Below, piece after piece: positions 1-39,070 of a DNA stretch of 64,000 nucleotides. The stretch is from Eledone cirrhosa. Taxonomy: Eukaryota. Below the pieces are notes generated by a model. It saw only the letters and a program-made list of their open reading frames with translations. It had not been told where the DNA came from and ran no database searches. The translations under genes and the position numbers were made by a program. The DNA is taken from the NCBI GenBank assembly GCA_964016885.1, contig OZ024749.1:19096001-19160000 (forward strand). Reading direction: 5' to 3'. Numbering within the stretch: the stretch's first letter is position 1; each line of letters begins with the position of its first letter.

Positions 1-230
1 GATCTATATATATATATATATATAGATCTATATATATATATATAGATCTATATATATATATAGATCTATATATATATATATATAGATCTATATATATATA
101 TATATATAGATCTATATATATATATAGATCTATATATATATATATATAGATCTATATATATATATAGATCTATATATATATATATATATATATATAGATC
201 TATATATATATATATAGATCTATATATATA

Positions 231-308
<78 letters not shown>

Positions 309-442
309 TCTATATATATATATATATAGATCTATATATATATATATATATAGATCTATATATATATAGATCTATAGATCTATAGATCTATATATATATA
401 GATCTATATATATATATATATAGATCTCTATATATATATATA
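1..442. repeat. GATC(TA)n compound microsatellite
   Basis: (TA)n runs punctuated by GATC; the same satellite resumes at 9032-9733 and 10684-11094. Confidence 0.95.
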
Positions 443-561
443 TAAATTGAAAAAAATGAAAACGAAATTTCATTTCTCACTCTTAGTATGGCACTTACTT
501 AAATGTAAGTATGTATATATACGTACATACATATATGTATACAGACGTACAGTAGCATGCA

Positions 562-620
<59 letters not shown>

Positions 621-1072
621 ACACATATGCATACAGGTACACATACATATATGCACGCATCAGTTTAGCCGACGTTTATTATAACGCCGGCCGCTTTGTT
701 CGTTTGTTTGTCAACAAAGCGAACAGCCTGAATTTATGCCATACGGTGCTAAGGCAACCACGTCACCTTTTTGTTCAACACTGACACAGGAACGATGTAC
801 TAGTTTCAAGCTTGTTAGCTATCATCAGCACTGTTTACCCATCTGCCAGATAGTTGAACGTTCGAAAGTATATACTTTCCTTATGAAAATTAACGGCTGA
901 GCAGCCTAATTTGCATATTGAGTGAGTTAAATCGGTCAGGCATACCGAAAACGATAAATTGAAAAAAATGAAAACGAAATTTCATTTCTCACTCTTAGTA
1001 TGGCACTTACTTAAATGTAAGTATGTATATATACGTACATACATATATGTATACAGACGTACAGTAGCATGC

Positions 1073-1113
<41 letters not shown>

Positions 1114-1570
1114 CATACACACATATGCATACAGGTACACATACATATATGCACGCATCAGTTTAGCCGACGTTTATTATAACGCCGGCCGCTTTGTTCG
1201 TTTGTTTGTCAACAAAGCGAACAGCCTGAATTTATGCCATACGGTGCTAAGGCAACCACGTCACCTTTTTGTTCAACACTGACACAGGAACGATGTACTA
1301 GTTTCAAGCTTGTTAGCTATCATCAGCACCGTTTACCCATCTGCCAGATAGTTGAACGTTCGAAAGTATATACTTTCCTTATGAAAATTAACGGCTGAGC
1401 AGCCTAATTTGCATATTGAGTGAGTTAAATCGGTCAGGCATACCGAAAACGATAAATTGAAAAAAATGAAAACGAAATTTCATTTCTCACTCTTAGTATG
1501 GCACTTACTTAAATGTAAGTATGTATATATACGTACATACATATATGTATACAGACGTACAGTAGCATGC

Positions 1571-1630
<60 letters not shown>

Positions 1631-2082
1631 ACACATATGCATACAGGTACACATACATATATGCACGCATCAGTTTAGCCGACGTTTATTATAACGCCGG
1701 CCGCTTTGTTCGTTTGTTTGTCAACAAAGCGAACAGCCTGAATTTATGCCATACGGTGCTAAGGCAACCACGTCACCTTTTTGTTCAACACTGACACAGG
1801 AACGATGTACTAGTTTCAAGCTTGTTAGCTATCATCAGCACCGTTTACCCATCTGCTAGATAGTTGAACGTTCGAAAGTATATACTTTCCTTATGAAAAT
1901 TAACGGCTGAGCAGCCTAATTTGCATATTGAGTGAGTTAAATCGGTCAGGCATACCGAAAACGATAAATTGAAAAAAATGAAAACGAAATTTCATTTCTC
2001 ACTCTTAGTATGGCACTTACTTAAATGTAAGTATGTATATATACGTACATACATATATGTATACAGACGTACAGTAGCATGC

Positions 2083-2140
<58 letters not shown>

Positions 2141-2592
2141 ACACATATGCATACAGGTACACATACATATATGCACGCATCAGTTTAGCCGACGTTTATT
2201 ATAACGCCGGCCGCTTTGTTCGTTTGTTTGTCAACAAAGCGAACAGCCTGAATTTATGCCATACGGTGCTAAGGCAACCACGTCACCTTTTTGTTCAACA
2301 CTGACACAGGAACGATGTACTAGTTTCAAGCTTGTTAGCTATCATCAGCACCGTTTACCCATCTGCCAGATAGTTGAACGTTCGAAAGTATATACTTTCC
2401 TTATGAAAATTAACGGCTGAGCAGCCTAATTTGCATATTGAGTGAGTTAAATCGGTCAGGCATACCGAAAACGATAAATTGAAAAAAATGAAAACGAAAT
2501 TTCATTTCTCACTCTTAGTATGGCACTAACTTAAATGTAAGTATGTATATATACGTACATACATATATGTATACAGACGTACAGTAGCATGC

Positions 2593-2652
<60 letters not shown>

Positions 2653-3104
2653 ACACATATGCATACAGGTACACATACATATATGCACGCATCAGTTTAG
2701 CCGACGTTTATTATAACGCCGGCCGCTTTGTTCGTTTGTTTGTCAACAAAGCGAACAGCCTGAATTTATGCCATACGGTGCTAAGGCAACCACGTCACCT
2801 TTTTGTTCAACACTGACACAGGAACGATGTACTAGTTTCAAGCTTGTTAGCTATCATCAGCACCGTTTACCCATCTGCCAGATAGTTGAACGTTCGAAAG
2901 TATATACTTTCCTTATGAAAATTAACGGCTGAGCAGCCTAATTTGCATATTGAGTGAGTTAAATCGGTCAGGCATACCGAAAACGATAAATTGAAAAAAA
3001 TGAAAACGAAATTTCATTTCTCACTCTTAGTATGGCACTTACTTAAATGTAAGTATGTATATATACGTACATACATATATGTATACAGACGTACAGTAGC
3101 ATGC

Positions 3105-3164
<60 letters not shown>

Positions 3165-3616
3165 ACACATATGCATACAGGTACACATACATATATGCAC
3201 GCATCAGTTTAGCCGACGTTTATTATAACGCCGGCCGCTTTGTTCGTTTGTTTGTCAACAAAGCGAACAGCCTGAATTTATGCCATACGGTGCTAAGGCA
3301 ACCACGTCACCTTTTTGTTCAACACTGACACAGGAACGATGTACTAGTTTCAAGCTTGTTAGCTATCATCAGCACCGTTTACCCATCTGCCAGATAGTTG
3401 AACGTTCGAAAGTATATACTTTCCTTATGAAAATTAACGGCTGAGCAGCCTAATTTGCATATTGAGTGAGTTAAATCGGTCAGGCATACCGAAAACGATA
3501 AATTGAAAAAAATGAAAACGAAATTTCATTTCTCACTCTTAGTATGGCACTTACTTAAATGTAAGTATGTATATATACGTACATACATATATGTATACAG
3601 ACGTACAGTAGCATGC

Positions 3617-3676
<60 letters not shown>

Positions 3677-4128
3677 ACACATATGCATACAGGTACACAT
3701 ACATATATGCACGCATCAGTTTAGCCGACGTTTATTATAACGCCGGCCGCTTTGTTCGTTTGTTTGTCAACAAAGCGAACAGCCTGAATTTATGCCATAC
3801 GGTGCTAAGGCAACCACGTCACCTTTTTGTTCAACACTGACACAGGAACGATGTACTAGTTTCAAGCTTGTTAGCTATCATCAGCACCGTTTACCCATCT
3901 GCCAGATAGTTGAACGTTCGAAAGTATATACTTTCCTTATGAAAATTAACGGCTGAGCAGCCTAATTTGCATATTGAGTGAGTTAAATCGGTCAGGCATA
4001 CCGAAAACGATAAATTGAAAAAAATGAAAACGAAATTTCATTTCTCACTCTTAGTATGGCACTTACTTAAATGTAAGTATGTATATATACGTACATACAT
4101 ATATGTATACAGACGTACAGTAGCATGC

Positions 4129-4186
<58 letters not shown>

Positions 4187-4638
4187 ACACATATGCATAC
4201 AGGTACACATACATATATGCACGCATCAGTTTAGCCGACGTTTATTATAACGCCGGCCGCTTTGTTCGTTTGTTTGTCAACAAAGCGAACAGCCTGAATT
4301 TATGCCATACGGTGCTAAGGCAACCACGTCACCTTTTTGTTCAACACTGACACAGGAACGATGTACTAGTTTCAAGCTTGTTAGCTATCATCAGCACCGT
4401 TTACCCATCTGCCAGATAGTTGAACGTTCGAAAGTATATACTTTCCTTATGAAAATTAACGGCTGAGCAGCCTAATTTGCATATTGAGTGAGTTAAATCG
4501 GTCAGGCATACCGAAAACGATAAATTGAAAAAAATGAAAACGAAATTTCATTTCTCACTCTTAGTATGGCACTTACTTAAATGTAAGTATGTATATATAC
4601 GTACATACATATATGTATACAGACGTACAGTAGCATGC

Positions 4639-4698
<60 letters not shown>

Positions 4699-5150
4699 AC
4701 ACATATGCATACAGGTACACATACATATATGCACGCATCAGTTTAGCCGACGTTTATTATAACGCCGGCCGCTTTGTTCGTTTGTTTGTCAACAAAGCGA
4801 ACAGCCTGAATTTATGCCATACGGTGCTAAGGCAACCACGTCACCTTTTTGTTCAACACTGACACAGGAACGATGTACTAGTTTCAAGCTTGTTAGCTAT
4901 CATCAGCACCGTTTACCCATCTGCCAGATAGTTGAACGTTCGAAAGTATATACTTTCCTTATGAAAATTAACGGCTGAGCAGCCTAATTTGCATATTGAG
5001 TGAGTTAAATCGGTCAGGCATACCGAAAACGATAAATTGAAAAAAATGAAAACGAAATTTCATTTCTCACTCTTAGTATGGCACTTACTTAAATGTAAGT
5101 ATGTATATATACGTACATACATATATGTATACAGACGTACAGTAGCATGC

Positions 5151-5206
<56 letters not shown>

Positions 5207-5658
5207 ACACATATGCATACAGGTACACATACATATATGCACGCATCAGTTTAGCCGACGTTTATTATAACGCCGGCCGCTTTGTTCGTTTGTTTGTCAA
5301 CAAAGCGAACAGCCTGAATTTATGCCATACGGTGCTAAGGCAACCACGTCACCTTTTTGTTCAACACTGACACAGGAACGATGTACTAGTTTCAAGCTTG
5401 TTAGCTATCATCAGCACCGTTTACCCATCTGCCAGATAGTTGAACGTTCGAAAGTATATACTTTCCTTATGAAAATTAACGGCTGAGCAGCCTAATTTGC
5501 ATATTGAGTGAGTTAAATCGGTCAGGCATACCGAAAACGATAAATTGAAAAAAATGAAAACGAAATTTCATTTCTCACTCTTAGTATGGCACTTACTTAA
5601 ATGTAAGTATGTATATATACGTACATACATATATGTATACAGACGTACAGTAGCATGC

Positions 5659-5693
<35 letters not shown>

Positions 5694-6154
5694 CACACAT
5701 ACACACATATGCATACAGGTACACATACATATATGCACGCATCAGTTTAGCCGACGTTTATTATAACGCCGGCCGCTTTGTTCGTTTGTTTGTCAACAAA
5801 GCGAACAGCCTGAATTTATGCCATACGGTGCTAAGGCAACCACGTCACCTTTTTGTTCAACACTGACACAGGAACGATGTACTAGTTTCAAGCTTGTTAG
5901 CTATCATCAGCACCGTTTACCCATCTGCCAGATAGTTGAACGTTCGAAAGTATATACTTTCCTTATGAAAATTAACGGCTGAGCAGCCTAATTTGCATAT
6001 TGAGTGAGTTAAATCGGTCAGGCATACCGAAAACGATAAATTGAAAAAAATGAAAACGAAATTTCATTTCTCACTCTTAGTATGGCACTTGCTTAAATGT
6101 AAGTATGTATATATACGTACATACATATATGTATACAGACGTACAATAGCATGC

Positions 6155-6206
<52 letters not shown>

Positions 6207-6658
6207 ACACAAATGCATACAGGTACACATACATATATGCACGCATCAGTTTAGCCGACGTTTATTATAACGCCGGCCGCTTTGTTCGTTTGTTTGTCAA
6301 CAAAGCGAACAGCCTGAATTTATGCCATACGGTGCTAAGGCAACCACGTCACCTTTTTGTTCAACACTGACACAGGAACGATGTACTAGTTTCAAGCTTG
6401 TTAGCTATCATCAGCACCGTTTACCCATCTGCCAGATAGTTGAACGTTCGAAAGTATATACTTTCCTTATGAAAATTAACGGCTGAGCAGCCTAATTTGC
6501 ATATTGAGTGAGTTAAATCGGTCAGGCATACCGAAAACGATAAATTGAAAAAAATGAAAACGAAATTTCATTTCTCACTCTTAGTATGGCACTTACTTAA
6601 ATGTAAGTATGTATATATACGTACATACATATATGTATACAGACGTACAGTAGCATGC

Positions 6659-6718
<60 letters not shown>

Positions 6719-7170
6719 ACACATATGCATACAGGTACACATACATATATGCACGCATCAGTTTAGCCGACGTTTATTATAACGCCGGCCGCTTTGTTCG
6801 TTTGTTTGTCAACAAAGCGAACAGCCTGAATTTATGCCATACGGTGCTAAGGCAACCACGTCACCTTTTTGTTCAACACTGACACAGGAACGATGTACTA
6901 GTTTCAAGCTTGTTAGCTATCATCAGCACCGTTTACCCATCTGCCAGATAGTTGAACGTTCGAAAGTATATACTTTCCTTATGAAAATTAACGGCTGAGC
7001 AGCCTAATTTGCATATTGAGTGAGTTAAATCGGTCAGGCATACCGAAAACGATAAATTGAAAAAAATGAAAACGAAATTTCATTTCTCACTCTTAGTATG
7101 GCACTTACTTAAATGTAAGTATGTATATATACGTACATACATATATGTATACAGACGTACAGTAGCATGC

Positions 7171-7234
<64 letters not shown>

Positions 7235-7687
7235 ACACATATGCATACAGGTACACATACATATATGCACGCATCAGTTTAGCCGACGTTTATTATAACG
7301 CCGGCCGCTTTGTTCGTTTGTTTGTCAACAAAGCGAACAGCCTGAATTTATGCCATACGGTGCTAAGGCAACCACGTCACCTTTTTGTTCAACACTGACA
7401 CAGGAACGATGTACTAGTTTCAAGCTTGTTAGCTATCATCAGCACCGTTTACCCATCTGCCAGATAGTTGAACGTTCGAAAGTATATACTTTCCTTATGA
7501 AAATTAACGGCTGAGCAGCCTAATTTGCATATTGAGTGAGTTAAATCGGTCAGGCATACCGAAAACGATAAATTGAAAAAAATGAAAACGAAATTTCATT
7601 TCTCACTCTTAGTATGGCACTTACTTAAATGTAAGTATGTATATATACGTACATACATATATGTATACAGACGTACAGTAGCATGCA

Positions 7688-7744
<57 letters not shown>

Positions 7745-8196
7745 ACACATATGCATACAGGTACACATACATATATGCACGCATCAGTTTAGCCGACGTT
7801 TATTATAACGCCGGCCGCTTTGTTCGTTTGTTTGTCAACAAAGCGAACAGACTGAATTTATGCCATACGGTGCTAAGGCAACCACGTCACCTTTTTGTTC
7901 AACACTGACACAGGAACGATGTACTAGTTTCAAGCTTGTTAGCTATCATCAGCACCGTTTACCCATCTGCCAGATAGTTGAACGTTCGAAAGTATATACT
8001 TTCCTTATGAAAATTAACGGCTGAGCAGCCTAATTTGCATATTGAGTGAGTTAAATCGGTCAGGCATACCGAAAACGATAAATTGAAAAAAATGAAAACG
8101 AAATTTCATTTCTCACTCTTAGTATGGCACTTACTTAAATGTAAGTATGTATATATACGTACATACATATATGTATACAGACGTACAGTAGCATGC

Positions 8197-8256
<60 letters not shown>

Positions 8257-8692
8257 ACACATATGCATACAGGTACACATACATATATGCACGCATCAGT
8301 TTAGCCGACGTTTATTATAACGCCGGCCGCTTTGTTCGTTTGTTTGTCAACAAAGCGAACAGCCTGAATTTATGCCATACGGTGCTAAGGCAACCACGTC
8401 ACCTTTTTGTTCAACACTGACACAGGAACGATGTACTAGTTTCAAGCTTGTTAGCTATCATCAGCACCGTTTACCCATCTGCCAGATAGTTGAACGTTCG
8501 AAAGTATATACTTTCCTTATGAAAATTAACGGCTGAGCAGCCTAATTTGCATATTGAGTGAGTTAAATCGGTCAGGCATACCGAAAACGATAAATTGAAA
8601 AAAATGAAAAGAAATTTCATTTCTCACTCTTAGTATGGCACTTACTTAAATGTAAGTATGTATATATACGTACATACATATATGTATACAGA
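442..8692 (-). repeat. Tandem array of ~510-bp units (16 full + partial 17th), each with a hammerhead ribozyme; retrozyme-like
   Basis: Equivalent positions at 447, 959, 1457, 1969, 2479, 2991, 3503, 4015, 4525, 5037, 5545, 6041, 6545, 7057, 7573, 8083, ~8595. Units are 496-516 bp and differ mainly in internal (TA)n length plus a few substitutions. Confidence 0.95.
791..835 (-). ncRNA. Minimal type I hammerhead ribozyme, unit 1; 45-nt copies also start at 1289, 1801, 2311, 2823, 3335, 3847, 4357, 4869, 5377, 5873, 6377, 6889, 7405, 7915, 8427
   Basis: Minus-strand consensus AACGGTG-CTGATGA-T-AGCT-AACA-AGCT-T-GAAA-CTAG-TA-CATCGTT: 7-bp stem I, CUGAUGA and GAAA core boxes, 4-bp stem II, palindromic stem III (ACTAGT), GUA cleavage triplet. 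Unit 1 has one stem I mismatch. Confidence 0.85.
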
Positions 8693-8913
8693 TGGGTAAA
8701 CGGTGCTGATGATAGCTAACAAGCTTGAAACTAGTACATCGTTCCTGTGTCAGTGTTGAACAAAAAGGTGACGTGGTTGCCTTAGCACCGTATGGCATAA
8801 ATTCAGGCTGTTCGCTTTGTTGACAAACAAACGAACAAAGCGGCCGGCGTTATAATAAACGTCGGCTAAACTGATGCGTGCATATATGTATGTGTACCTG
8901 TATGCATATGTGT

Positions 8914-8973
<60 letters not shown>

Positions 8974-9031
8974 GCATGCTACTGTACGTCTGTATACATA
9001 TATGTATGTACGTATATATACATACTTACAT
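8689..9031 (+). repeat. Inverted partial copy of the array unit
   Basis: Reverse complement of the unit, from CAGATGGGTAAAC to CATACTTACAT; 4-nt CAGA overlap at the junction. Confidence 0.95.
8699..8743 (+). ncRNA. Minimal type I hammerhead ribozyme in the inverted unit
   Basis: AACGGTG CTGATGA TAGCTAACAAGCTT GAAA CTAGTA CATCGTT read directly on the + strand. Confidence 0.85.
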
Positions 9032-9733
9032 ATATATATATAGATCTCTATATATATAGATCTATAGATCTATATATATATAGATCTATAGATCTATATA
9101 TATATAGATCTATATATATATATATATATAGATCTATATATATATATATATAGATCTATATATATATATATATAGATCTATATATATATATATAGATCTA
9201 TATATATATATATATAGATCTATATATATATATATATATAGATCTATATATATATATATATAGATCTATATATATATATATATAGATCTATATATATAGA
9301 TCTATATATATATATATAGATCTATATATATATATATATAGATCTATATATATATATATAGATCTATATATATATATATATATAGATCTATATATATATA
9401 TATATATATAGATCTCTATATATATATATATAGATCTCTATATATATATATATAGAGATCTATATATATATATATAGATCTCTATATATATATATATATA
9501 TAGAGATCTATATATATATATATATAGAGATCTATATATATATATATAGATCTCTATATATATATATATATATAGAGATCTATATATATATATATATAGA
9601 GATCTATATATATATATATATAGAGATCTATATATATATATATATAGAGATCTATATATATATATATATAGAGATCTATATATATATATATATAGAGATC
9701 TATATATATATATATATAGAGATCTATATATAT
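9032..9733. repeat. GATC/GAGATC(TA)n microsatellite
   Basis: Simple repeat. Confidence 0.95.
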
Positions 9734-10683
9734 GCCCTCTGGCAGGCGGATCCGGTTATCAGTGGAGACTCCACCGCAACATTCTATAGAGGGCTGGTAC
9801 GCAGCAGGTGTGACGACGCCCTCGGAGAAGCCCTAGACATGGAGGAGGACGAACTGGCCAGCCTGTTCGGTAGGACATTCAGCCCGGGACCTATGGACAA
9901 CTTCCAGAAGTCCCTGGCCTGGCAGTGCTACCGAGGGGCTTTACCCGTTCGAGAAAGGCTCTACAGACACGGGCGCCCGGGTAGGGACCCCGCCAAAAAG
10001 ATCTGTCCCAGATGCGTGTGCGACGAGGAAACCGTTGCACACGCATTGGTACACTGCTCGGGCGCAGCCGATCTGTGGGGCTATGTCGAACAACTGCTGT
10101 CAAGGGTGGGACCGATCCGGTTGACCACCGAGTCTATTGTAATGATCAAGCCGCCTCCCCCCTTCAAAGATGAAGCAGAGGCGGTGTTTCTGTGCGTAAT
10201 AGCCATGGCGAAAGAGGTTGTATGGTGGACGCGTCTGAAAGGACTGAGGTCAGGCACTTTTCTCTCTGGCCAACAACTGGTCCGTTTCTTCCGATATCAT
10301 TTCGGAAGAAGGATCAGGATGGAGAGAGAGGTGCTGCACCCCAGCCGTTTCTATGAAAGATGGGTGAAAGTGGCGAGAATGGCCCGTGTGAATGGGCCTT
10401 CACTCTACATCAGACTATAGGTGAGGAAGATGAAAGACCATGGGAGCACCCCTTCTCTGTGCTCCTGAGGAGAAGGGTTGCACACTTTTTTCGGGGGTGT
10501 GTGCGACCTCCCAAGGCGCCTCCTCTCTATTGAGGATTTTGTTAAAAATTTTATTTTTTGTTATATCTTATTTTATTTTTATATTTTGTTATTGCCTCCT
10601 CCTTATTGAGGACGCCTTTTTGTGTAAACTCCCCCCTTTGTACTTGTCCCACTTTTGATGCCCTAGTGGCAAATAAAAGAAAC
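9734..10683 (+). mobile_element. 5'-truncated L1/Tx1-group LINE (ORF2 C-terminal zinc-binding region + 3' UTR)
   Basis: ORF 9839-10420 has W...GALP...CPRC...[11 protein letters not shown], like the zf-RVT CCHC motif; T-rich 3' UTR with AATAAA near 10672; (TA)n on both sides. Confidence 0.8.
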
Positions 10684-10937
10684 ATATATATATATATATA
10701 TATAGATCTATATATATATATATATATAGATCTATATATATATATATATATATATATAGATCTATATATATATATATCTATATATATATATATATATATA
10801 TAGATCTATATATATATAGATCTATATATATATAGATCTATATATATATATATCTATATATATATATATATATATATAGATCTATATATATATAGATCTA
10901 TATATATATAGATCTATATATATATATATATATATAT

Positions 10938-10972
<35 letters not shown>

Positions 10973-11611
10973 TCTATATATATATAGATCTATATATATA
11001 TAGATATATATATATATATATATATAGATCTATATATATATAGATCTATATATATATAGATATATATATATATATATAGATCTATATAGATATATCATCA
11101 TCATCGTCATCGTTTTTAACGTCTATCTTCCACGATAGATAGCAGTTGAGCAGTTGAAGTATAAGGATGTGTTTTTACTTCTCTCCCCGAGTAAGCAGCA
11201 AGTCACACAGCCACAAAACAAAACCACAAAGACAAAACCAAACAAACAAAAATTGACCGGTTAATACATTTACATACATCTATATTATTATATATTTGAA
11301 AATTGACCGGTTAATACATTTACATACATCTATAATATATTATTATATATTTGAAACCACGTGTTTTCGAACTTGTGAGTACATTTTCCTTTAACTACAA
11401 ATTATTATTATATACTTTCCTCTTTTCATTAACTTAATTAATTTCAAATAACCAGAATATACATATATATATATATATACTCATATTTATATATATACTC
11501 TTCTCACTCACACACAAGAAAAACAAAAAACAAAAATAAATCAAAAATAAATTAAAAAAAAATATATATATATTGAAATACTTAACTAAAACACACACAC
11601 TCAAAACTAGA

Positions 11612-12769
11612 ATGGCTAACCAGCAAAAATCCAAACAGAACTGGTCTGATAATGAAATCGACATTCTAATAAACACATGGCATTGCCTTTCCCAAACAGA
11701 AGATATAGATGCTTCATCTCTGAACGACATTGCTAAACGTACAGTTCAATTTTTGAAAACTCGATCTGAACAACAGATTCAAAATAAATTAAAGCAAATC
11801 GAAATTGCTTTTAAATTAATCAATAAACATTTGGATAAACTACGGTGTGTTTTCTCTTCGAATGCTGTCCAGCAGCAGCAGCAACAACAACAACAGCAGC
11901 TACAACAGCAACAACAACAACAGCTACAACAACAACATCAACAACAGCAACAACAACAACAACAACAACAACAGTGTGAACCACTCCTTGATTCATCAAC
12001 AATGGCCGATCTACTAAATGAAACTATTGACCCCCCAGTAGCCTCTGTCTCACAGCATGAAACGCCACATCCTTTCTCTGGCCCAGCAGTCCAATCATCA
12101 CCACTGCCAACATCTCTGCCTACTACTACTACTACTACTACTACAACATTTTTGTCTACTGCTATGTCAAGGAATTTACCTTCTAATACCAGTACAAGAA
12201 CTCTCCCTCCCACAGTCCACAAAGGTCGTCAAATCCTACCCAAACCATCATCTACACCTCTCACAACACACACACCCACATACCCACCCACTCGAAACCC
12301 CATCATTTGCCGCTACTCTCTACGCTATAGAATATGTACGGATAGTGGCTGCAAATTCACCCATTTACCTAGGACAAAACGATCTATCCCCACAAACAGC
12401 CACCACCATAATACATACTCTAATTTAACACCAACACAACCACCAATAACTCAAACAAGGAATCCACAAATCTGCCGTTTTTCCCTGCGAGACAGATTGT
12501 GTTTAGACCGGGATTGTCCCTTTACCTATCTCCCGGGGACCCGTCGGACAAATGAAAATAAAATTAAAAATAAAAGCAAAAACAAAAACCATAACCTACA
12601 TAAAAATAACCACTACCACAGTCACCAACAGTCTTCTAAACAGGAAACTTCTTCCTCTTTTTTAGCCATAATGAATCTGGCAAAAGAACTGGAAAAAAAC
12701 ATTCGAGCTATCACCCAGCACCACCCTCCACTATCACCCCACTGCACAAACTCCCATTGCTGCCATTAA
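11612..12769 (+). CDS. LINE ORF1: Myb/SANT-like N-terminus, polyQ, Thr/Pro-rich linker, two CCCH-type fingers
   Basis: ATG at 11612; NWSDNEIDILINTW...RSEQQIQNKLKQI; CRYSLRYRICTDSGCKFTH and CRFSLRDRLCLDRDCPFTY. Confidence 0.7.
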   Translation: MANQQKSKQNWSDNEIDILINTWHCLSQTEDIDASSLNDIAKRTVQFLKTRSEQQIQNKLKQIEIAFKLINKHLDKLRCVFSSNAVQQQQQQQQQQLQQQQQQQLQQQHQQQQQQQQQQQQCEPLLDSSTMADLLNETIDPPVASVSQHETPHPFSGPAVQSSPLPTSLPTTTTTTTTTFLSTAMSRNLPSNTSTRTLPPTVHKGRQILPKPSSTPLTTHTPTYPPTRNPIICRYSLRYRICTDSGCKFTHLPRTKRSIPTNSHHHNTYSNLTPTQPPITQTRNPQICRFSLRDRLCLDRDCPFTYLPGTRRTNENKIKNKSKNKNHNLHKNNHYHSHQQSSKQETSSSFLAIMNLAKELEKNIRAITQHHPPLSPHCTNSHCCH

Positions 12770-15700
12770 CAAACAAACAAATTAACAACACACCAAAACA
12801 ATTAAAACCATCCACTCTCGCCTCTACATTTTTGCTTAACGCCCAAGGCATCAGCCCTTCCACCAATACTCAAAAATGGAAGATCAAATTCCTGGAGGAC
12901 TGGATTGATGTCCATCTAAACCACATCCCTTTCTTCGTCCTCACTGAAACCCATCTCAGTAACCTCCACTTGGAAGCCGAGGTGAAAGTGAAAAATTTCA
13001 AAGCCATCCGTGCTGATCGCGCTGGCAGAAGAAAGGGCGGAACTGCCATTTATGTCCATAATTCTTTCTCAACAGAGGCTATGAACATATTCACTAATGG
13101 ATACTGTGAAGCAGTCACTGTATTCAGTCAAACCAACAACCTATTAGTAGTTGGGCTCTATAGGCCACCCCAAACGCCTGTAGCATGCTTCAAGGAATGC
13201 CTCAACAGCATAAAGTGTTTCATCCAAGAGTGTCACCCTGACATCTTAATGATGGGGGACTTCAACCTCCCCGGAGTTGACTGGTCCACAAACAGCCTGC
13301 CACCAGGTTCTTCTGCCTCAACCTCTGACAGGGAAGCTGTGGAATCGCTTCTTGACTTCATGGATGATTTCTTCCTATCCCAACTGGTGCTCGAACCAAC
13401 GAGGTGCCACAAAAACGTCCTAGACTTAATTTTCAGCAATCACACTGACAATATCCACAATATTGCAGTGGAGAAAACTCTACTCTCTGATCATGACATG
13501 GTTCTCTGTGATCTGAGATTCCACCGTCCAATATACAAACCCAATGTCATCTCTCTTGTCCATCCGTTTGACGCTATGGATTTCCACAATGCAAACTGGG
13601 AAGCGATCAGTCATGATCTTGCACATGTCGACTGGTCCTTCACGCACACTCATACACCCACTAACATCAAAAAGTCCTGGCAGACATTTGTGGACACTGT
13701 TACAAACATATGTGCTAAACACACCCCATTAAGAACTATAAACAAATCTAAGAGCAGAATCCCTAGAAATAGAAAAACGCTCATCAGAAAAATTAAGAGA
13801 ACGAACAAAAAAAATCAACAAGCTGAAATACTGTCAGCAGCAACACATCAACTTGACTGCCATTTCATCACTAGAGATTAAAAAACATAACCTCCAAAAC
13901 AACATAATGTCCCTCATCAACAATCAGAGAAGAGCTGAAGAGGCCTGGGCCATTGAGAAGATCAAACTCAATCCCAAAGTGTTCTTTTCATTTGCAAAAA
14001 AACACAAAATCACTGGCTCTACTGTTGGCCCTCTAATTGATGAAAATGGCACTCTTCAAGACAATGCTAAAACCATGGGTGAGATACTGCAGAAACAATA
14101 CTGCTCTGTTTTCAGCAATCCTGATATGGCTGATCTGGGCTGTATCGGCGATGTTACTCCCCATTACACCTTATCGGACATAACGTTTGGCGCCCCTGAT
14201 GTCTTGGCGGCAATAAAGGAAATCAAGCATAATTCAGCAGTAGGTCCCGATAGGTTCCCTGCTTGTGTCTTGAAGGCGTGTCAACACCAACTTGCATCTC
14301 CTCTTGCCAATCTGTGGCGGAACTCACTGGATGCTGGATATGTGCCAGAAAACCTTCTATCCCAGTCTGTTGTCCCAGTTTTCAAAAAGGGAAACAAATC
14401 CCTTGCCGTGAATTACCGTCCAATCTCACTCACCTCTCATATCATTAAGGTATTTGAGCGAGTGGTGAGATCGCGAATGACCCACTTCCTTGAGAGTAAC
14501 AATATGCTGAACTCCAACCAGCATGGATTCCGTAATGGAAGGGATTGCCTGACGCAGCTACTGCATCACTTTGATGACATTTTGAGAGCCTTGGGAGAGG
14601 GTTCCAACACTGATGTTATCTACCTTGATTTCAGCAAGCCCTTTGACAGGGTTGATCATAACATTCTACTGAGAAAGCTGTCCAATATTGGTGTCACTGG
14701 AAAGCTGCTGCAGTGGATCAAGAGCTTCCTGTCAAACAGAACCCAACATGTTGTAGTTGAGGGAGTCAAATCAAGCCCAGCCAAAGTCAGTAGTGGGGTC
14801 CCACAAGGCACTGTGTTGGGCCCACTTCTCTTCATCATCTATATTAATGACATCACTGACATCATCAAACACAGCAACATTAAAATTTTCGCTGATGATT
14901 CCAAGCTCCAAAAGGTCATCAATGGCGTGGATGACCGGATAAGCCTTCAGTCAGACCTACTGGCTGTTACCCAATGGGCAGAAAAGAACAACATGTTACT
15001 GAATGAAAACAAATTCGAACTGATCCACTTTGGAAAAGAGGATGCTCTGAAACTCCCGTACTCCCTTCCCTCCGGGGAAACTCTCGTGGCATCTAACAAC
15101 ATCAGAGACTTGGGAGTAACCGTGGACAGCAACATAAGCTGGACCACGCATATAAGCAGCAAAGTTGACATGGCCCGCAGAATGTGTTCCTGGATCCTCA
15201 GAACCTTCCAGTCGAGAGATTCCCGCACCATTATCCTTCTCTTCTCTACTTTCGCCCGACCACACCTTGAATACTGTTGTCCACTGTGGTCTCCCCACAC
15301 GAAACAAAGTATCATGAAACTTGAAGCTCCTCAAAGGGCAATCACGAAAAAGATAGATGGCATGTCAGACCTTGACTACTGGGGTCGATTAGAAAACCTG
15401 AAACTTTACTCACTCCAACGTCGCCGTGAGCGTTATATTATCTGCATGATGTGGAAAATGTTCCATCATCACTGCCCAAATGATGTTGGCATCGCCTTCA
15501 AGATACACCCAAGGCTTGGGCCCCGTGCTATCCGTCCCATTCAAAAATCTAAATCGCAACTCATAACAACAATACGGCACAATTATTTCACCTCAATCGG
15601 CCCTGCTCTCTTCAACATCACACCAGGACACGTCAAAACAGAAACTGACCACACAAAATTCAAGAAGTCTTTGGACAAATTCCTCCAAGTAATCCCGGAC

Positions 15701-15775
15701 AAACCACCCACACCCGGATATGTCTCCGCAAACAGTAATTCTCTTCTCGAATGGGCCATGGTGCCCAAATCCTGA
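12640..15775 (+). pseudogene. LINE ORF2 (AP endonuclease + reverse transcriptase) with one frameshift in an A8 run at 13807-13814
   Basis: APE motifs LLNAQG, LTETH, YRPP, GDFN, LDL, SDH; RT motifs NYRPISL, QHGFR, YLDFSKPFD, GVPQGTVLGP, FADD. Removing one A joins ORFs 12757-13881 and 13853-15775. Confidence 0.9.
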
Positions 15776-16505: not shown

Positions 16506-16915
16506 ATAAAATATTAAACAAATAATGAACAAACAATTCCTTATATTAAACAAAAAAAGTTCACTATTTAACGATCGTTTCTAGGGCATATATGTGTTAT
16601 AATTGGTATGCATATTTAACAGATCTATGTACAAAATTATACAAAATTATACAAATTATCAAGATTAAATATACATACCTAACTCATATATACGCCGTCT
16701 TCAGAAATAATTATTTCTGAAGACGGCGTATATATGAGTTAGGTATGTATATTTAATCTTGATAATTTGTATAATTTTGTATAATTTTGTACATAGATCT
16801 GTTAAATATGCATACCAATTATAACACATATATGCCCTAGAAACGATCGTTAAATAGTGAACTTTTTTTGTTTAATATAAGGAATTGTTTGTTCATTATT
16901 TGTTTAATATTTTAT
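16506..16915. repeat. ~410-bp spacerless palindrome; Penelope pseudo-LTR-like foldback with hammerhead-like core
   Basis: Symmetry axis at 16710/16711 (TCAGAAATAA|TTATTTCTGA); arms appear to match end to end. Confidence 0.9.
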
Positions 16916-30479: not shown

Positions 30480-30870
30480 TATCTTGGTATTTCTGTCTGT
30501 AATGCTCGCATTCTTAAATTGACCTGCAGTGTGGGTGTTTCTAAGAGATCTTCAGTCGTCCAGGGTGCTAATTTTAAAGTGTGCCAGTTGCAGTTTCGTC
30601 CAAAGTAGATGCATTTAGAAGGGGTCCGTATTTAGCGATAAAGTGTGATTCCTTGCTAATGTGCTGGATGTAGGAAGCGTTGTCTTTAAATTTGTAGAGG
30701 GGAAAAATTCTGAAGTTGGGTTGTTCATTAGAGGTGGAGGTCACAATGTGTTCACTCAGTGCTATTTTTCTGTATTCCCGTATTTTAATTTGGGATCTAT
30801 GAACGGTCATATGTTGACAAAGACTGTTTTTAGTCTGTCCTATGTAGTGCTCTCGACAGCCTGTAGCCAC
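30480..30870 (-). mobile_element. Inverted 3' end of a Penelope-like element (GIY-YIG C-terminus + pseudo-LTR)
   Basis: Minus ORF GCREHYIGQTKNSL...HRSQI...KESHFIAKYGPLLN; homologous to 32760-32850 on +. Confidence 0.8.
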
Positions 30871-32855
30871 TAAAGAACTAACAACAGACCAAATTAACAT
30901 ACTCTCCAAAGGGCTGGAACTTACACCGACCGCCCAACATCCAAGCGAAACGAAGGAAGAAATTGCAGAATTCTGTAGAAAAATAAGACTTAGCAGGGGA
31001 CTACTCTACCAGTACACTGAGAACAAATCAATAGCTAGAAACGGAAGCAATGACACCACATTGAAAGGTAAGAATAAATTCCTCGACCAATTCTGTGAAC
31101 ACATTACAAATTACCCATATCAACACCTACACAGACAAAAACACAGGCCCAACTTCAGCAAGAAAGAATGGGATGAGCTGAACAGATTAAAGAATGATAA
31201 AACTATAACAATCAAAGAGGCAGATAAAGGGAGTGCGATAGTCCTAATGGAGACAGAATATTATACAACCCTAGTGCTCTCCACTTTAGAAGATGGAGCA
31301 TACTATGAAAAGGCTCAACACTACAGTCAACAGAAAATAATGAAAAACCTAAAAACTCAGATAACCCTTTACAGAGAAGGACTTACCGACAAGGAATACA
31401 ATTATATCAATGACTTCAAAAGCAAACCCAGCTTTTTCTTCGCTATCCTTAAGATACACAAAAGCGAAAAAATAAGTAAGGCATGCAAGGAAGCCACAGA
31501 TATATTCATCGATGTCCCCTTACCCAATGACCTCAAATTAAGGCCTATAATAGCAGGCCCCGCTTGCGAAACCCTGAAACACATTAAAGGATGACCTTGA
31601 TATGCTCAACCACCTCCCCAAAACACTTAATAATGAACATACTCTACTAGTGTCTTTTGATGTAGCCAACCTATATTCCAATATCCCACACAACCTAGGA
31701 AGAGAGGCAATCCAGTTCTAGTTAGAAAATTACCCCCAATGAACTCCCACACCGCATCATAAAAAGAATTTGTAATAGAAGGGCTCAAATTTATCTTTGG
31801 GAATAACTACTTCGAATTCGATGCCACATTCTACAGACAGAAATCTGGGACTGCCATGGGCACGAAAATGGCCTCCTCTTATACCAACCTTGTTATGGGA
31901 TACCTGGAAATCACCCTCTACCGAAAAGTACTAGATAAATATGGAAACTCCTACCTCCACATAGAAAATAACTGGATGATTGTTTCATCTTCTGGCATGA
32001 AAGACTTATTGAATTTAAAGCACTTCTAAATGGACTTAGCACAAACATTCAATTTACAATGGAATACAGCCACGGGCAACTTCCTTTCTTCAACATCCTT
32101 ATAAAGAAAACTAACAAGAAAATAGAAACAGACATAAGCCCACAGACTCCAAACAGTATCTTCCATTCAACCCATGCCACCCGAGAGACACCAAAATGAA
32201 CATCCCTTACAACATAGCCAAAAGAATCTGTACAATAGTATCTGATAGAAACACCTGTTACATACGACTAGAAGAATTAAAGGACTCGCTCATTGGCAGG
32301 AATTATCCACCATCCCTAATTAACAATGGATTCCAATGTGCCCTAAAACTCAGTATCCAGGAACTTAGATACCCCAAACTAAAGAATGAATTGAAACTAA
32401 AAGCTCTACCATACTTCTCCACACACAAGCTCCTTGACACTGGGGCTTTCGACACCATCCTCCAGAATATACCTTTACTAAAAAGAGACTTAAGAATGAA
32501 TCAAATCCTTCAAACACAAACACAACATTATAAAGAGCAAAAGACAACCCAGATCAATGAAAAACATCCTTACACAGGCCAAAGTCCAGTCGACTTTAAC
32601 AATGAAACCTACAGTAAAAAAATGTAGAAGACCCAACTGTGGTATATGTGTCAACCTAATAGAGGTATCGGAGTTCCACTTCAAACAAGGGTAACACTTT
32701 ACAGTGAAATACAATTTCACATGCGCATCAGAAAACCTGATATGTGTGTTGACTTGCTCAGGTTGACGAGAGTACTACATAGGACAGACTAAAAATGTAT
32801 GACTGTTCATAGATCCCAAATTAAAATACTGGAATGCAGAAAAATAGCACTTCCT
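30871..32855 (+). mobile_element. Degenerate Penelope-like element (RT + GIY-YIG)
   Basis: LSKGL, IKEADKGSAIV, KIHK, LRPII, SFDVANLYSNIPH, GTAMGTKMA, CRRPNCGIC, YIGQT; many frameshifts. Confidence 0.88.
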
Positions 32856-36591: not shown

Positions 36592-39070
36592 TACATATGT
36601 CTGTTGAAAGACTGGGAGACAGTGGGTGTTTTGTCATGGCACATATGTTTGTTGAGACACTGGGAGACAATGTGTGTTTTGTCATGGCACATATGTCTGT
36701 TGAGACACTGGGAGACAGTGTGTGTTTTGTCATGGCACATATGTCTGTTGAGATGCTGGGAGACAGTGTGTGTTTTGTCATGGCACATATGTCTGTTGAA
36801 AGACTGGGAGACAGTGGGTGTTTTGTCATGGCACATATGTCTGTTGAGATGCTGGGAGACAGTGGGTGTTTGTCATGGCACATTTGTTTGTTGAGACGCT
36901 GGGAGACAGTGGGTGTTTTGTCATGGCACATATGTTTGTTGAGACACTGAGAGTCAGTGGGTGTTTTGTCATGGCACATATGTCTGTTGAGATGTTGGGA
37001 GACAGTGGGTGTTTTGTCATGGCACATATGTCTGTTGAGATGTTGGGAGACAGTGGGTGTTTTGTCATGGCACATATGTCTGTTGAGACACTGGGAGACA
37101 GTGGGTGTTTTGTCATGGCACATATATCTGTTGGGAGACAGTGGGTGTTTTGTCATGCCACATATGTTTGTTGAGATGCTGGGAGACAGTGGGTGTTTTG
37201 CCATGGCACATGTTTGTTGAGATGCTGGGAGACAGTGAGTGTTTTGTCATGGCACATATGTCTGATGAGATGTTGGGAGACAGTGGGTGTTTTGTCATGG
37301 CACATATGTTTGTTGAGATGCTGGGAGACAGTGGGTGTTTTGTCATGGCACATATGTCTGTTGAGACACTGGGAGACAGTGGGTGTTTTGTCATGGCACA
37401 TATGTCTGTTGAGACACTGGGAGACTGGGTGTTTTGTCATGGCACATATGTCTGTTGAAACACTGGGAGACAGTGGGTGTTTTGTCATGGCACATATGTC
37501 TGTTGAGACACTGGGAGTCAGTGGGTGTTTTGTCATGGCACATATGTTTGTTGGGATGCTGGGAGACAGTGGGTGTTTTGTCATGGCACATATGTCTGTT
37601 GAGACACTGGGAGACAGTGGGTGTTTTGTCATGGCACATATGTCTGTTGAGATGTTGGGAGACAGTGGGTGTTTTGTCATGGCACATATGTCTGTTGAGA
37701 TGTTGGGAGACACTGGGTGTTTTGTCATGGCACATATGTCTGATGAGATGTTGGGAGACAGTGGGTGTTTTGTCATGGCACATATGTCTGATGAGATGTT
37801 GGGAGACAGTGGGTGTTTTGTCATGGCACATATGTTTGTTGGGATGCTGGGAGACAGTGGGTGTTTTGTCATGGCACATATGTCTGTTGAGATGTTGGGA
37901 GACAGTGGGTGTTTTGTCATGGCACATTTGTTTGTTGAGACGCTGGGAGACAGTGGGTGTTTTGTCATGGCACATATGTCTGTTGAGACACTGGGAGACA
38001 GTGGGTGTTTTGTCATTCCACATATGTCTGTAGAGACACTGGGAGACAGTGGGTGTTTTGTCATGGCACATGTTTGTTGAGATGCTGGGAGACAGTGGTT
38101 GTTTTGTCATGGCACAATTGTTTGTTGAGATGCTGGGAGACTGGGTGTTTTGTCATGGCACATGTTTGTTGAGATGCTGGGAGACAGTGGGTGTTTTGTC
38201 ATGGCACATGTCTGATGAGATGTTGGGAGACAGTGGGTGTTTTGTCATGGCACATATGTCTGATGAGATGTTGGGAGACAGTGGGTGTTTTGTCATGGCA
38301 CATATGTTTGTTGAGATGCTGGGAGACTGGGTGTTTTGTCATGGCACATATGTCTGTTGAGACTCTGGGAGACAGTGGGTGTTTTGTCATGGCACATATA
38401 TCTGTAGAGACACTGGGAGACAGTGGGTGTTTTGTCATGGCACATATGTTTGTTGAGATGCTGGGAGACAGTGGGTGTTTTGTCATGGCACATATGTCTG
38501 ATGGATGTTGGGAGACAGTGGGTGTTTTGTCATGGCACATATGTCTGTTGAAACACTGGGAGACTGGGTGTTTTGTCATGGCACATATGTCTGTTGGGAG
38601 ACAGTGGGTGTTTTGTCATGGCACATATGTTTGTTGAGATGCTGGGAGACAGTGGGTGTTTTGTCATGGCACATATGTCTGTTGAGACTCTGGGAGACAG
38701 TGGGTGTTTTGTCATGGCACATATATCTGTAGAGACACTGGGAGACAGTGGGTGTTTTGTCATGGCACATATGTTTGTTGAGATGCTGGGAGACAGTGGG
38801 TGTTTTGTCATGGCACATATGTCTGATGGATGTTGGGAGACAGTGGGTGTTTTGTCATGGCACATATGTCTGTTGAGACACTGGGAGACAGTGGGTGTTT
38901 TGTCATGGCACATATGTTTATTGAGACACTGGGAGACAGTGGGTGTTTTGTCATGGCACATATGTCTGTTGAAACACTGGGAGACAGTGGGTGTTTTGTC
39001 ATGGCACATATGTCTGTTGAAACACTGGGAGACTGGGTGTTTTGTCATGGCACATATGTCTGTTGAGATG
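36592..39070. repeat. 48-bp minisatellite, ~52 copies
   Basis: Consensus GGGAGACAGTGGGTGTTTTGTCATGGCACATATGTCTGTTGAGACACT; spurious ORFs show 16-aa periodicity. Confidence 0.95.

Follow-up and report, generated by a model that had tools for sequence, protein, structure and literature searches.

The window, the 64,000-nt stretch of Eledone cirrhosa DNA analyzed here, raises the question of how a long tandem array that ends in an inverted partial unit came to lie within a TA-rich satellite, and whether it arrived there in one event. The 8.6-kb stretch in question is one copy of an abundant hammerhead repeat of this 3.0-Gb genome, with two arms placed back to back. Its features are as follows, with unit positions numbered along the ribozyme strand of 8080-8591.

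1..443, no strand: left GATC(TA)n target satellite, which extends upstream beyond the window
405..443, plus strand: possible target-site duplication of ~30 nt, weak and a single case
444..8692, minus strand: long arm of 16 full units (496-516 bp each) and a 101-bp partial unit
444..502, minus strand: tail of ~59 nt between fixed sites A and B, at only one of the insertion's ends
8689..8692, no strand: CAGA microhomology, a 4-nt overlap fitting both arms at their head-to-head join
8689..9031, plus strand: short inverted arm of 343 bp, unit positions 111-453, with its outer end at fixed site A (..CTTAC, then AT)
8700..8742, plus strand: predicted type I hammerhead of the inverted arm, read from the sequence and with a motif script
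9032..9733, no strand: right GATC(TA)n target satellite

Two arms and a hammerhead at the window locus

The long arm ends outward at fixed site B (..CAATTT, then AT) and inward at unit position 411, and the length differences among its units are confined to an internal TA microsatellite. The original prediction held that the array breaks off mid-unit and switches through CAGA to an inverted partial unit. This is borne out: the reverse complement of 8689-9031 is 100% identical to the last full unit over 343 nt, with zero mismatches, and the two arms overlap by the 4 nt named. The same GATC(TA)n satellite is indeed present on both outer flanks. It was also predicted that the inverted arm begins just upstream of the ribozyme; this is true here, where it begins 17 nt before the core, but it looks like chance because inner ends are scattered over the whole unit among 105 arms.

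The sole GATCTC of the left satellite (423) reappears as the first interruption on the right (9043), and the TA runs around this possible target-site duplication are unequal in length (15 vs 10). A duplicated-looking target is found only at the window locus and at locus L185; pure TA makes a target-site duplication unreadable. The tail folds into hairpins, and the same stretch in the last unit gives a fold z of -3.7.

Each unit contains one hammerhead, which lies on the minus strand throughout the long arm. In the inverted arm, stem I is formed by 8700-8705 with 8737-8742, CUGAUGA occupies 8706-8712, and the core spans 8706-8736. Helix II comprises 4 bp with U-U as its basal pair, GAAA and a palindromic CUAG helix III are also present, and stem I of the unit hammerhead measures 6-7 bp. 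Cleavage is predicted after GUA, at 8736. Searching the window with Rfam returned nothing at gathering score; at low stringency there is a weak match to Hammerhead_HH9 (18.5 bits, E 0.19), in a list made up mostly of miRNA models that match TA/CA microsatellite. Because this signal is weak, the hammerhead was identified by hand and with the motif script. Folding of the ribozyme alone gave a z of -0.04 without the catalytic fold and was excluded from the evidence.

Short palindromic helices III permit hammerheads to act as dimers (PMC4209133). The axolotl ribozyme HHR_Amex2 resembles the unit hammerhead in its U-U at the base of helix II and its short helix III, and its cleavage is weak when it acts alone and improves in the dimer (PMC7229834). 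The repeat has the sequence features that characterize non-LTR retrozymes, and it is assigned to that class here from its sequence. Judged by eye, the unit also seems to lack any open reading frame, PBS, or PPT.

Several other repeats lie in the neighborhood. Just to the right of the inverted arm, at 9734-10684, another LINE-like element is represented by a 3' fragment, which includes a Cys/His motif and is set within the same GATC(TA)n satellite. It is followed at 11540-15775 by a near-intact LINE-like element with a 409-aa Q-rich frame; beyond it come endonuclease-like and RT-like frames whose overlap is out of phase, with the domains recognized by eye. A perfect 205-nt inverted repeat with no spacer lies between TA satellites at 16506-16915 and is possibly a small two-armed insertion. 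At 36593-39070 there is a 48-bp minisatellite of 52 copies.

Fixed ends and their pairing across the family

Exact copies of the 40-nt ribozyme core number 10,122 genome-wide, against none for its reversed control. The family is dispersed as monomers to multimers with a unit length of 466-538 bp. Its arms terminate at two fixed sites ~60 nt apart, each followed by TA: site A (..CTTAC, then AT) at about unit 450-457, and site B (..CAA[C/T]TT, then AT) at unit 512.

The pairing of these ends was read in two samples. The first 100 core matches on C1 form 50 clusters with 1 to 8 listed matches each (the C1 sample), and 28 of the 50 are head to head. By the motif script, 21 of these 28 pair one A end with one B end (A+B), 7 have one unreadable end, and neither A+A nor B+B occurs (0 each). 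Three top-hit arrays, including the window locus, and 10 extra loci are likewise all A+B. These counts cover loci with readable opposed arms, and they omit the 22 of 50 clusters that have no head-to-head arms, 2 of 12 extra loci without an inverted arm that could be read, and three very long arrays (C239, C4b, and C4c). The second sample comprises 60 of 874 B+(TA) junctions of the young 466-bp subfamily (numbers 13-72 of 100 listed), with arms delimited by BLAST-anchored extension. An inverted arm is present in 46 of these 60 loci, and its end is A in 43, interrupted or unreadable in 3, and B in 0. The outer flank of the inverted arm is a TA run in 44/46; the B side, preselected for TA, is uncounted.

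The long arm may be either the A or the B arm, and the lengths of the two are uncorrelated (rho -0.03). Inversion is a rule of this family rather than a 5' accident. The expectation that other loci vary in copy number, carry inversions, and have TA targets holds for the loci checked, which are variable in copy number, mostly inverted, situated in (TA)n, and bounded by the two fixed ends. The inverted piece had been taken for a truncated 5' pseudo-LTR, an account that gives way to a better one in which it is a second cDNA arm, primed from the opposite DNA end at a fixed site of its own, with either arm able to be the long one. In the first sample, inner ends seemed to gather immediately ahead of site B, which had hinted at a transcription start, and this candidate was set aside.

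Arms are joined with an excess of 1-6 nt overlaps across the family. Among 33 direct joins of the B-end sample, 2 of which fall in microsatellite, the overlap is at least 1 nt in 30 and at least 2 nt in 20, whereas random joins reach these overlaps in 46% and 18% of cases. Extra letters occur in 13 of 46 joins, and some of them equal short pieces of the unit. These microhomology counts are taken from the B-end sample; in the first sample, divergence left 12/31 junctions unresolved. Beside site A, at the inner end of an arm, a 12-nt piece of the tail is reiterated at L175:4600-4668 and L167:6424-6435. The former has about six copies. Both cases look as though a stalled RT had copied a short template over and over.

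Other hammerhead families were seen alongside this one. At L044:5400-7572, the TA sequence flanking one of the family's B ends contains a two-armed array whose 310-bp hammerhead unit is unrelated; the ribozyme of that unit also has U-U as the basal pair of helix II, and its helix III is palindromic. At L132:1332, a chimera passes from another hammerhead family into that of the window with the switch at the ribozyme, which suggests template switching between families. A further family of short hammerhead elements occurs in (TA)n at L197:219-235, L176:444, and L080:1639, with a head-to-head pair in L197.

The enzyme, the template, and rival explanations

The window locus is very probably a single two-ended Penelope-type insertion. 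The original prediction of one insertion by Penelope-type machinery in trans is supported, with the fixed A and B ends, the inversion, the (TA)n target, and the private variants all in its favor. Penelope-like insertions are described with microsatellite targets, an inverted copy adjoining the 5' end, and a tail of 30-40 bp that is often confined to a single end (PMC8557442). Purified Penelope protein, a predicted dimer, cuts and extends both strands, and its RT has two start sites on the RNA in vitro, with the tail between them (PMC11167929). The repeat appears to insert like an autonomous Penelope-like element but is not one, as the RT and GIY-YIG open reading frame is absent; a tblastn search with Penelope proteins found no match inside the arrays.

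The genome contains a young and highly abundant RT/GIY-YIG family (L083:3500-5040; L255-L274) whose copies are 94-100% identical among 150 scored of 35,848 candidates. Its members have a hammerhead-like motif, (TA)n ends, and two sites 60 nt apart. Head-to-head pairs of this family are A+B in 9/10 by script; the tenth, A+B when judged by eye, ends at B with a tail that is internally deleted. Six of the regions were selected because opposed copies were visible in the match list. A copy at L257 retains an open frame of 1,167 residues. Pfam gave no match for this frame and a sub-threshold RT match for a second copy, so the identity of the frame depends on a BLASTP match to the protein P0003 (E 4e-12). 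The tail of this family is no more like the unit tail than shuffles are (65 of 500 score as high), and across 50 loci the unit is not its pseudo-LTR. The young RT/GIY-YIG family is a candidate for the enzyme only.

The unit is likewise not the pseudo-LTR of the window's own Penelope family across 50 loci. An element of that family at 30480-32855 had been cited as a local example of a Penelope insertion with an inverted, truncated end. Its inverted GIY-YIG end is present (tblastn 30607-30888, minus strand; 82% over 106 nt to the forward arm), but the element is old, broken, and of a family other than the young RT/GIY-YIG one, and it matches the unit only in microsatellite.

Evidence on the template begins with the short arms. 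B arms made up of the tail only, 55-63 nt long and stopping at site A, account for 8/60 loci in the B-end sample. Such stops occur in 8/57 first passes and 0/69 later passes (Fisher p 0.0013). If the sequence itself caused the pause, later laps should show it as well, while a block by an A-primed complex would not recur, which suggests that both priming complexes occupy the same RNA molecule.

A locus-fixed variant is common to both arms at 7 loci. The window locus differs from the closest arrays (C3, C4, and C239) at two positions, and both differences are present in all units compared and in the inverted arm. A 45-nt haplotype that contains one of them has 16 copies in the genome, all at the window locus (15 units and the inverted arm). 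Seven substitutions and one 1-nt deletion in the window array are each private to one unit, and the array shows no shared substitution and no periodicity in unit length. Since the 45-nt haplotype is found only here and in both arms, the simplest reading of the window locus is one monomer copied about 17 times in a single event. Changes fixed at a locus are A>G on the RNA strand in 4/10 cases vs 6/81 for unit-private changes (p 0.012, a small and post hoc comparison), a bias that would fit A-to-I editing of the template.

The predicted cut site is crossed unchanged in 330/335 units, with an indel in 1, which favors a closed circle over jumping across a nick. A circular monomer RNA is a probable template for the window locus. 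In the proposed mechanism, the unit would be transcribed, cut by dimeric hammerheads, and ligated into a circle of ~510 nt. The enzyme would bind the 59-nt tail and nick both strands of (TA)n, and one DNA end would then prime at site A and the other at site B of the same RNA. Each RT would continue by strand displacement, here covering 343 nt from site A and, from site B, about 16.2 laps, and the two cDNA ends would be joined via a few matching bases (CAGA) and then filled in.

The reading preferred on balance is that the 8.6 kb is one non-LTR retrozyme insertion, made by a Penelope-type RT/GIY-YIG dimer in trans that would have copied a single circular monomer from both ends of the break. A fuller version is offered tentatively, as one that may well prove too specific. 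It is hypothesized that an RT dimer on one ribozyme-made circle primes 60 nt apart from one break and yields the tail, the inverted copy, and the arrays in a single event, with some templates A-to-I edited and the edits fixed in every unit.

The rival that survives best, although it is unlikely, retains the two-ended Penelope insertion and replaces the circle with a long linear RNA, read through from a homogeneous donor array and either left uncut or cleaved at its 5' end alone. In L090, 138T followed by a 458-bp unit recurs as an ordered pair of variants in both arms, a pattern better explained by a multimer template or by gene conversion between arms than by a monomer circle. Among arms longer than one lap, 9/51 end within 32 nt 3' of the predicted cut, three of them at position 162, against 3.5 expected (p 0.007, and p 0.40 once all windows are scanned); ends just 3' of the cut are a hint of linear RNA with a cut 5' end. 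Ribozyme cleavage is dispensable for Penelope insertion in vitro (PMC11167929), and multimeric RNAs are present in axolotl (PMC7229834), both of which a linear template would accommodate. Two other locus-fixed haplotypes are shared (43 matches in 14 places and 21 matches in 5 places), so homogeneous donors are possible for those loci, and privacy is established for the window locus only.

The haplotype of the window locus itself is found nowhere else in the assembly, which counts against a linear donor, although its donor could be absent from the assembly. Moreover, a linear template would need a one-unit bottleneck for a new variant to be fixed in all units. The two arms share heterogeneity in only 1 of the compared loci with multiple units in each arm (C3, L090, L166, L182, L203, L217, and L218), a comparison in which young loci have little power.

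It is less probable still that a short two-armed Penelope-type insertion came first and that its long arm grew later at the DNA level by unequal exchange or slippage. Such growth does occur in the family. The prediction that unit variants are private rather than periodic stands for the window array and fails elsewhere, with variants of period 4 in C3, period 3 in C4, scattered and shared in C239 (about 100 units), and also shared in L044 and L090. Long arrays therefore grow after insertion too. However, the window array has none of these shared substitutions or periods, and several near-identical units are present in both arms of the young loci L166, L182, L203, L217, and L218. The arrays at G000:C239:91051-141055 (about 100 units) and G000:C4:305623000-305658000 (>65 units) each open with a short inverted arm and contain shared variants, and they show retrozyme insertions growing into satellites.

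Return to a monomer template leaves the choice between the preferred circle and a ribozyme-cut linear monomer with paired ends, whose nick the RT would have jumped on each lap. Such jumping would account for each locus having a single haplotype and for stops being slightly too frequent close to the cut, but the near-constant crossings of the cut site would make the jumps nearly error-free, and this alternative is quite improbable.

Last, there is a negligible likelihood that the inversion reflects misassembly, fold-back repair, or ordinary twin priming of the L1 type: assembly of TA-rich repeats is difficult, but dozens of independent loci show this layout, with ends that are fixed and complementary. 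In L1-type twin priming, the outer end of the inverted piece is variable and abuts the inner end of the main piece, whereas here it has a fixed position that does not depend on the main piece's inner end.

Meaning and comparison with known systems

These insertions bear on how retrozymes return to DNA and on the origin of the inverted copies and one-sided tail of Penelope insertions. In the passages compared, earlier papers propose Penelope enzymes and a circular template without insertion-level evidence (PMC7229834; 10.64898/2026.07.22.740005). The insertions described here supply a strict rule of one A arm, one B arm, and one haplotype. This A+B rule and the sign of a single RNA allow the model to be tested directly in the in vitro Penelope assay that already exists, and the 1,167-residue frame in this genome represents a young candidate enzyme. 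The window locus suggests that a satellite-like array can arise at full length in one step.

Metazoan non-LTR retrozymes are non-coding, as the repeat appears to be, and resemble it in having an AT-rich tandem unit with one type I hammerhead that occurs as monomers to multimers (PMC7229834; 10.64898/2026.07.22.740005). The unit is longer here, at 466-538 bp vs RNAs of about 170-400 nt, and circles have been demonstrated for the published metazoan retrozymes, whereas the Eledone cirrhosa unit is described here from DNA (PMC7229834; 10.64898/2026.07.22.740005). The 2026 preprint leans to local amplification after insertion (10.64898/2026.07.22.740005).

The autonomous Penelope-like elements with an endonuclease, known as EN+ elements (Craig et al. 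2021, PMC8557442; Frangieh et al. 2024, PMC11167929), differ from the unit, which appears to be without an open reading frame. The tail is about 60 nt here vs 30-40 in EN+ elements, and the arms here reach up to 17 or more units, unlike those of EN+ elements (PMC8557442). Strict A+B pairing and first-pass stops at A are seen here and go unstated in the passages on EN+ elements in PMC8557442 and PMC11167929. In the in vitro Penelope reaction, the two strands showed no start-site difference (PMC11167929).

The Chlamys elements, such as MRC1, come close in another respect, as non-autonomous Penelope derivatives with multicopy head-to-tail insertions (PMC8557442). They differ in resembling their autonomous partner at the 3' end and in belonging to a clade without canonical hammerheads (PMC8557442). 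No partner of that kind was found for the unit in 50 + 50 loci of two Penelope families.

Inverted arms, fixed ends, and (TA)n targets are not described in the passages compared from PMC7229834 and 10.64898/2026.07.22.740005, and the words "inverted," "microsatellite," and "rolling" have 0 occurrences in PMC7229834. Titles and abstract openings of the papers that searches listed, subscription journals lying outside their coverage, yielded no description of two-armed retrozyme insertions. Penelope mobilization, with tandem cDNA made from circular RNA, was proposed by Cervera and de la Pena in 2020 (PMC7229834), and the mobilization of retrozymes by Penelope is backed by phylogeny in Li, Clavereau, and Pollet 2026 (10.64898/2026.07.22.740005). 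Penelope mobilization of retrozymes has already been put forward in print, and the two-armed layout of the insertions described here appears to be an addition to it.
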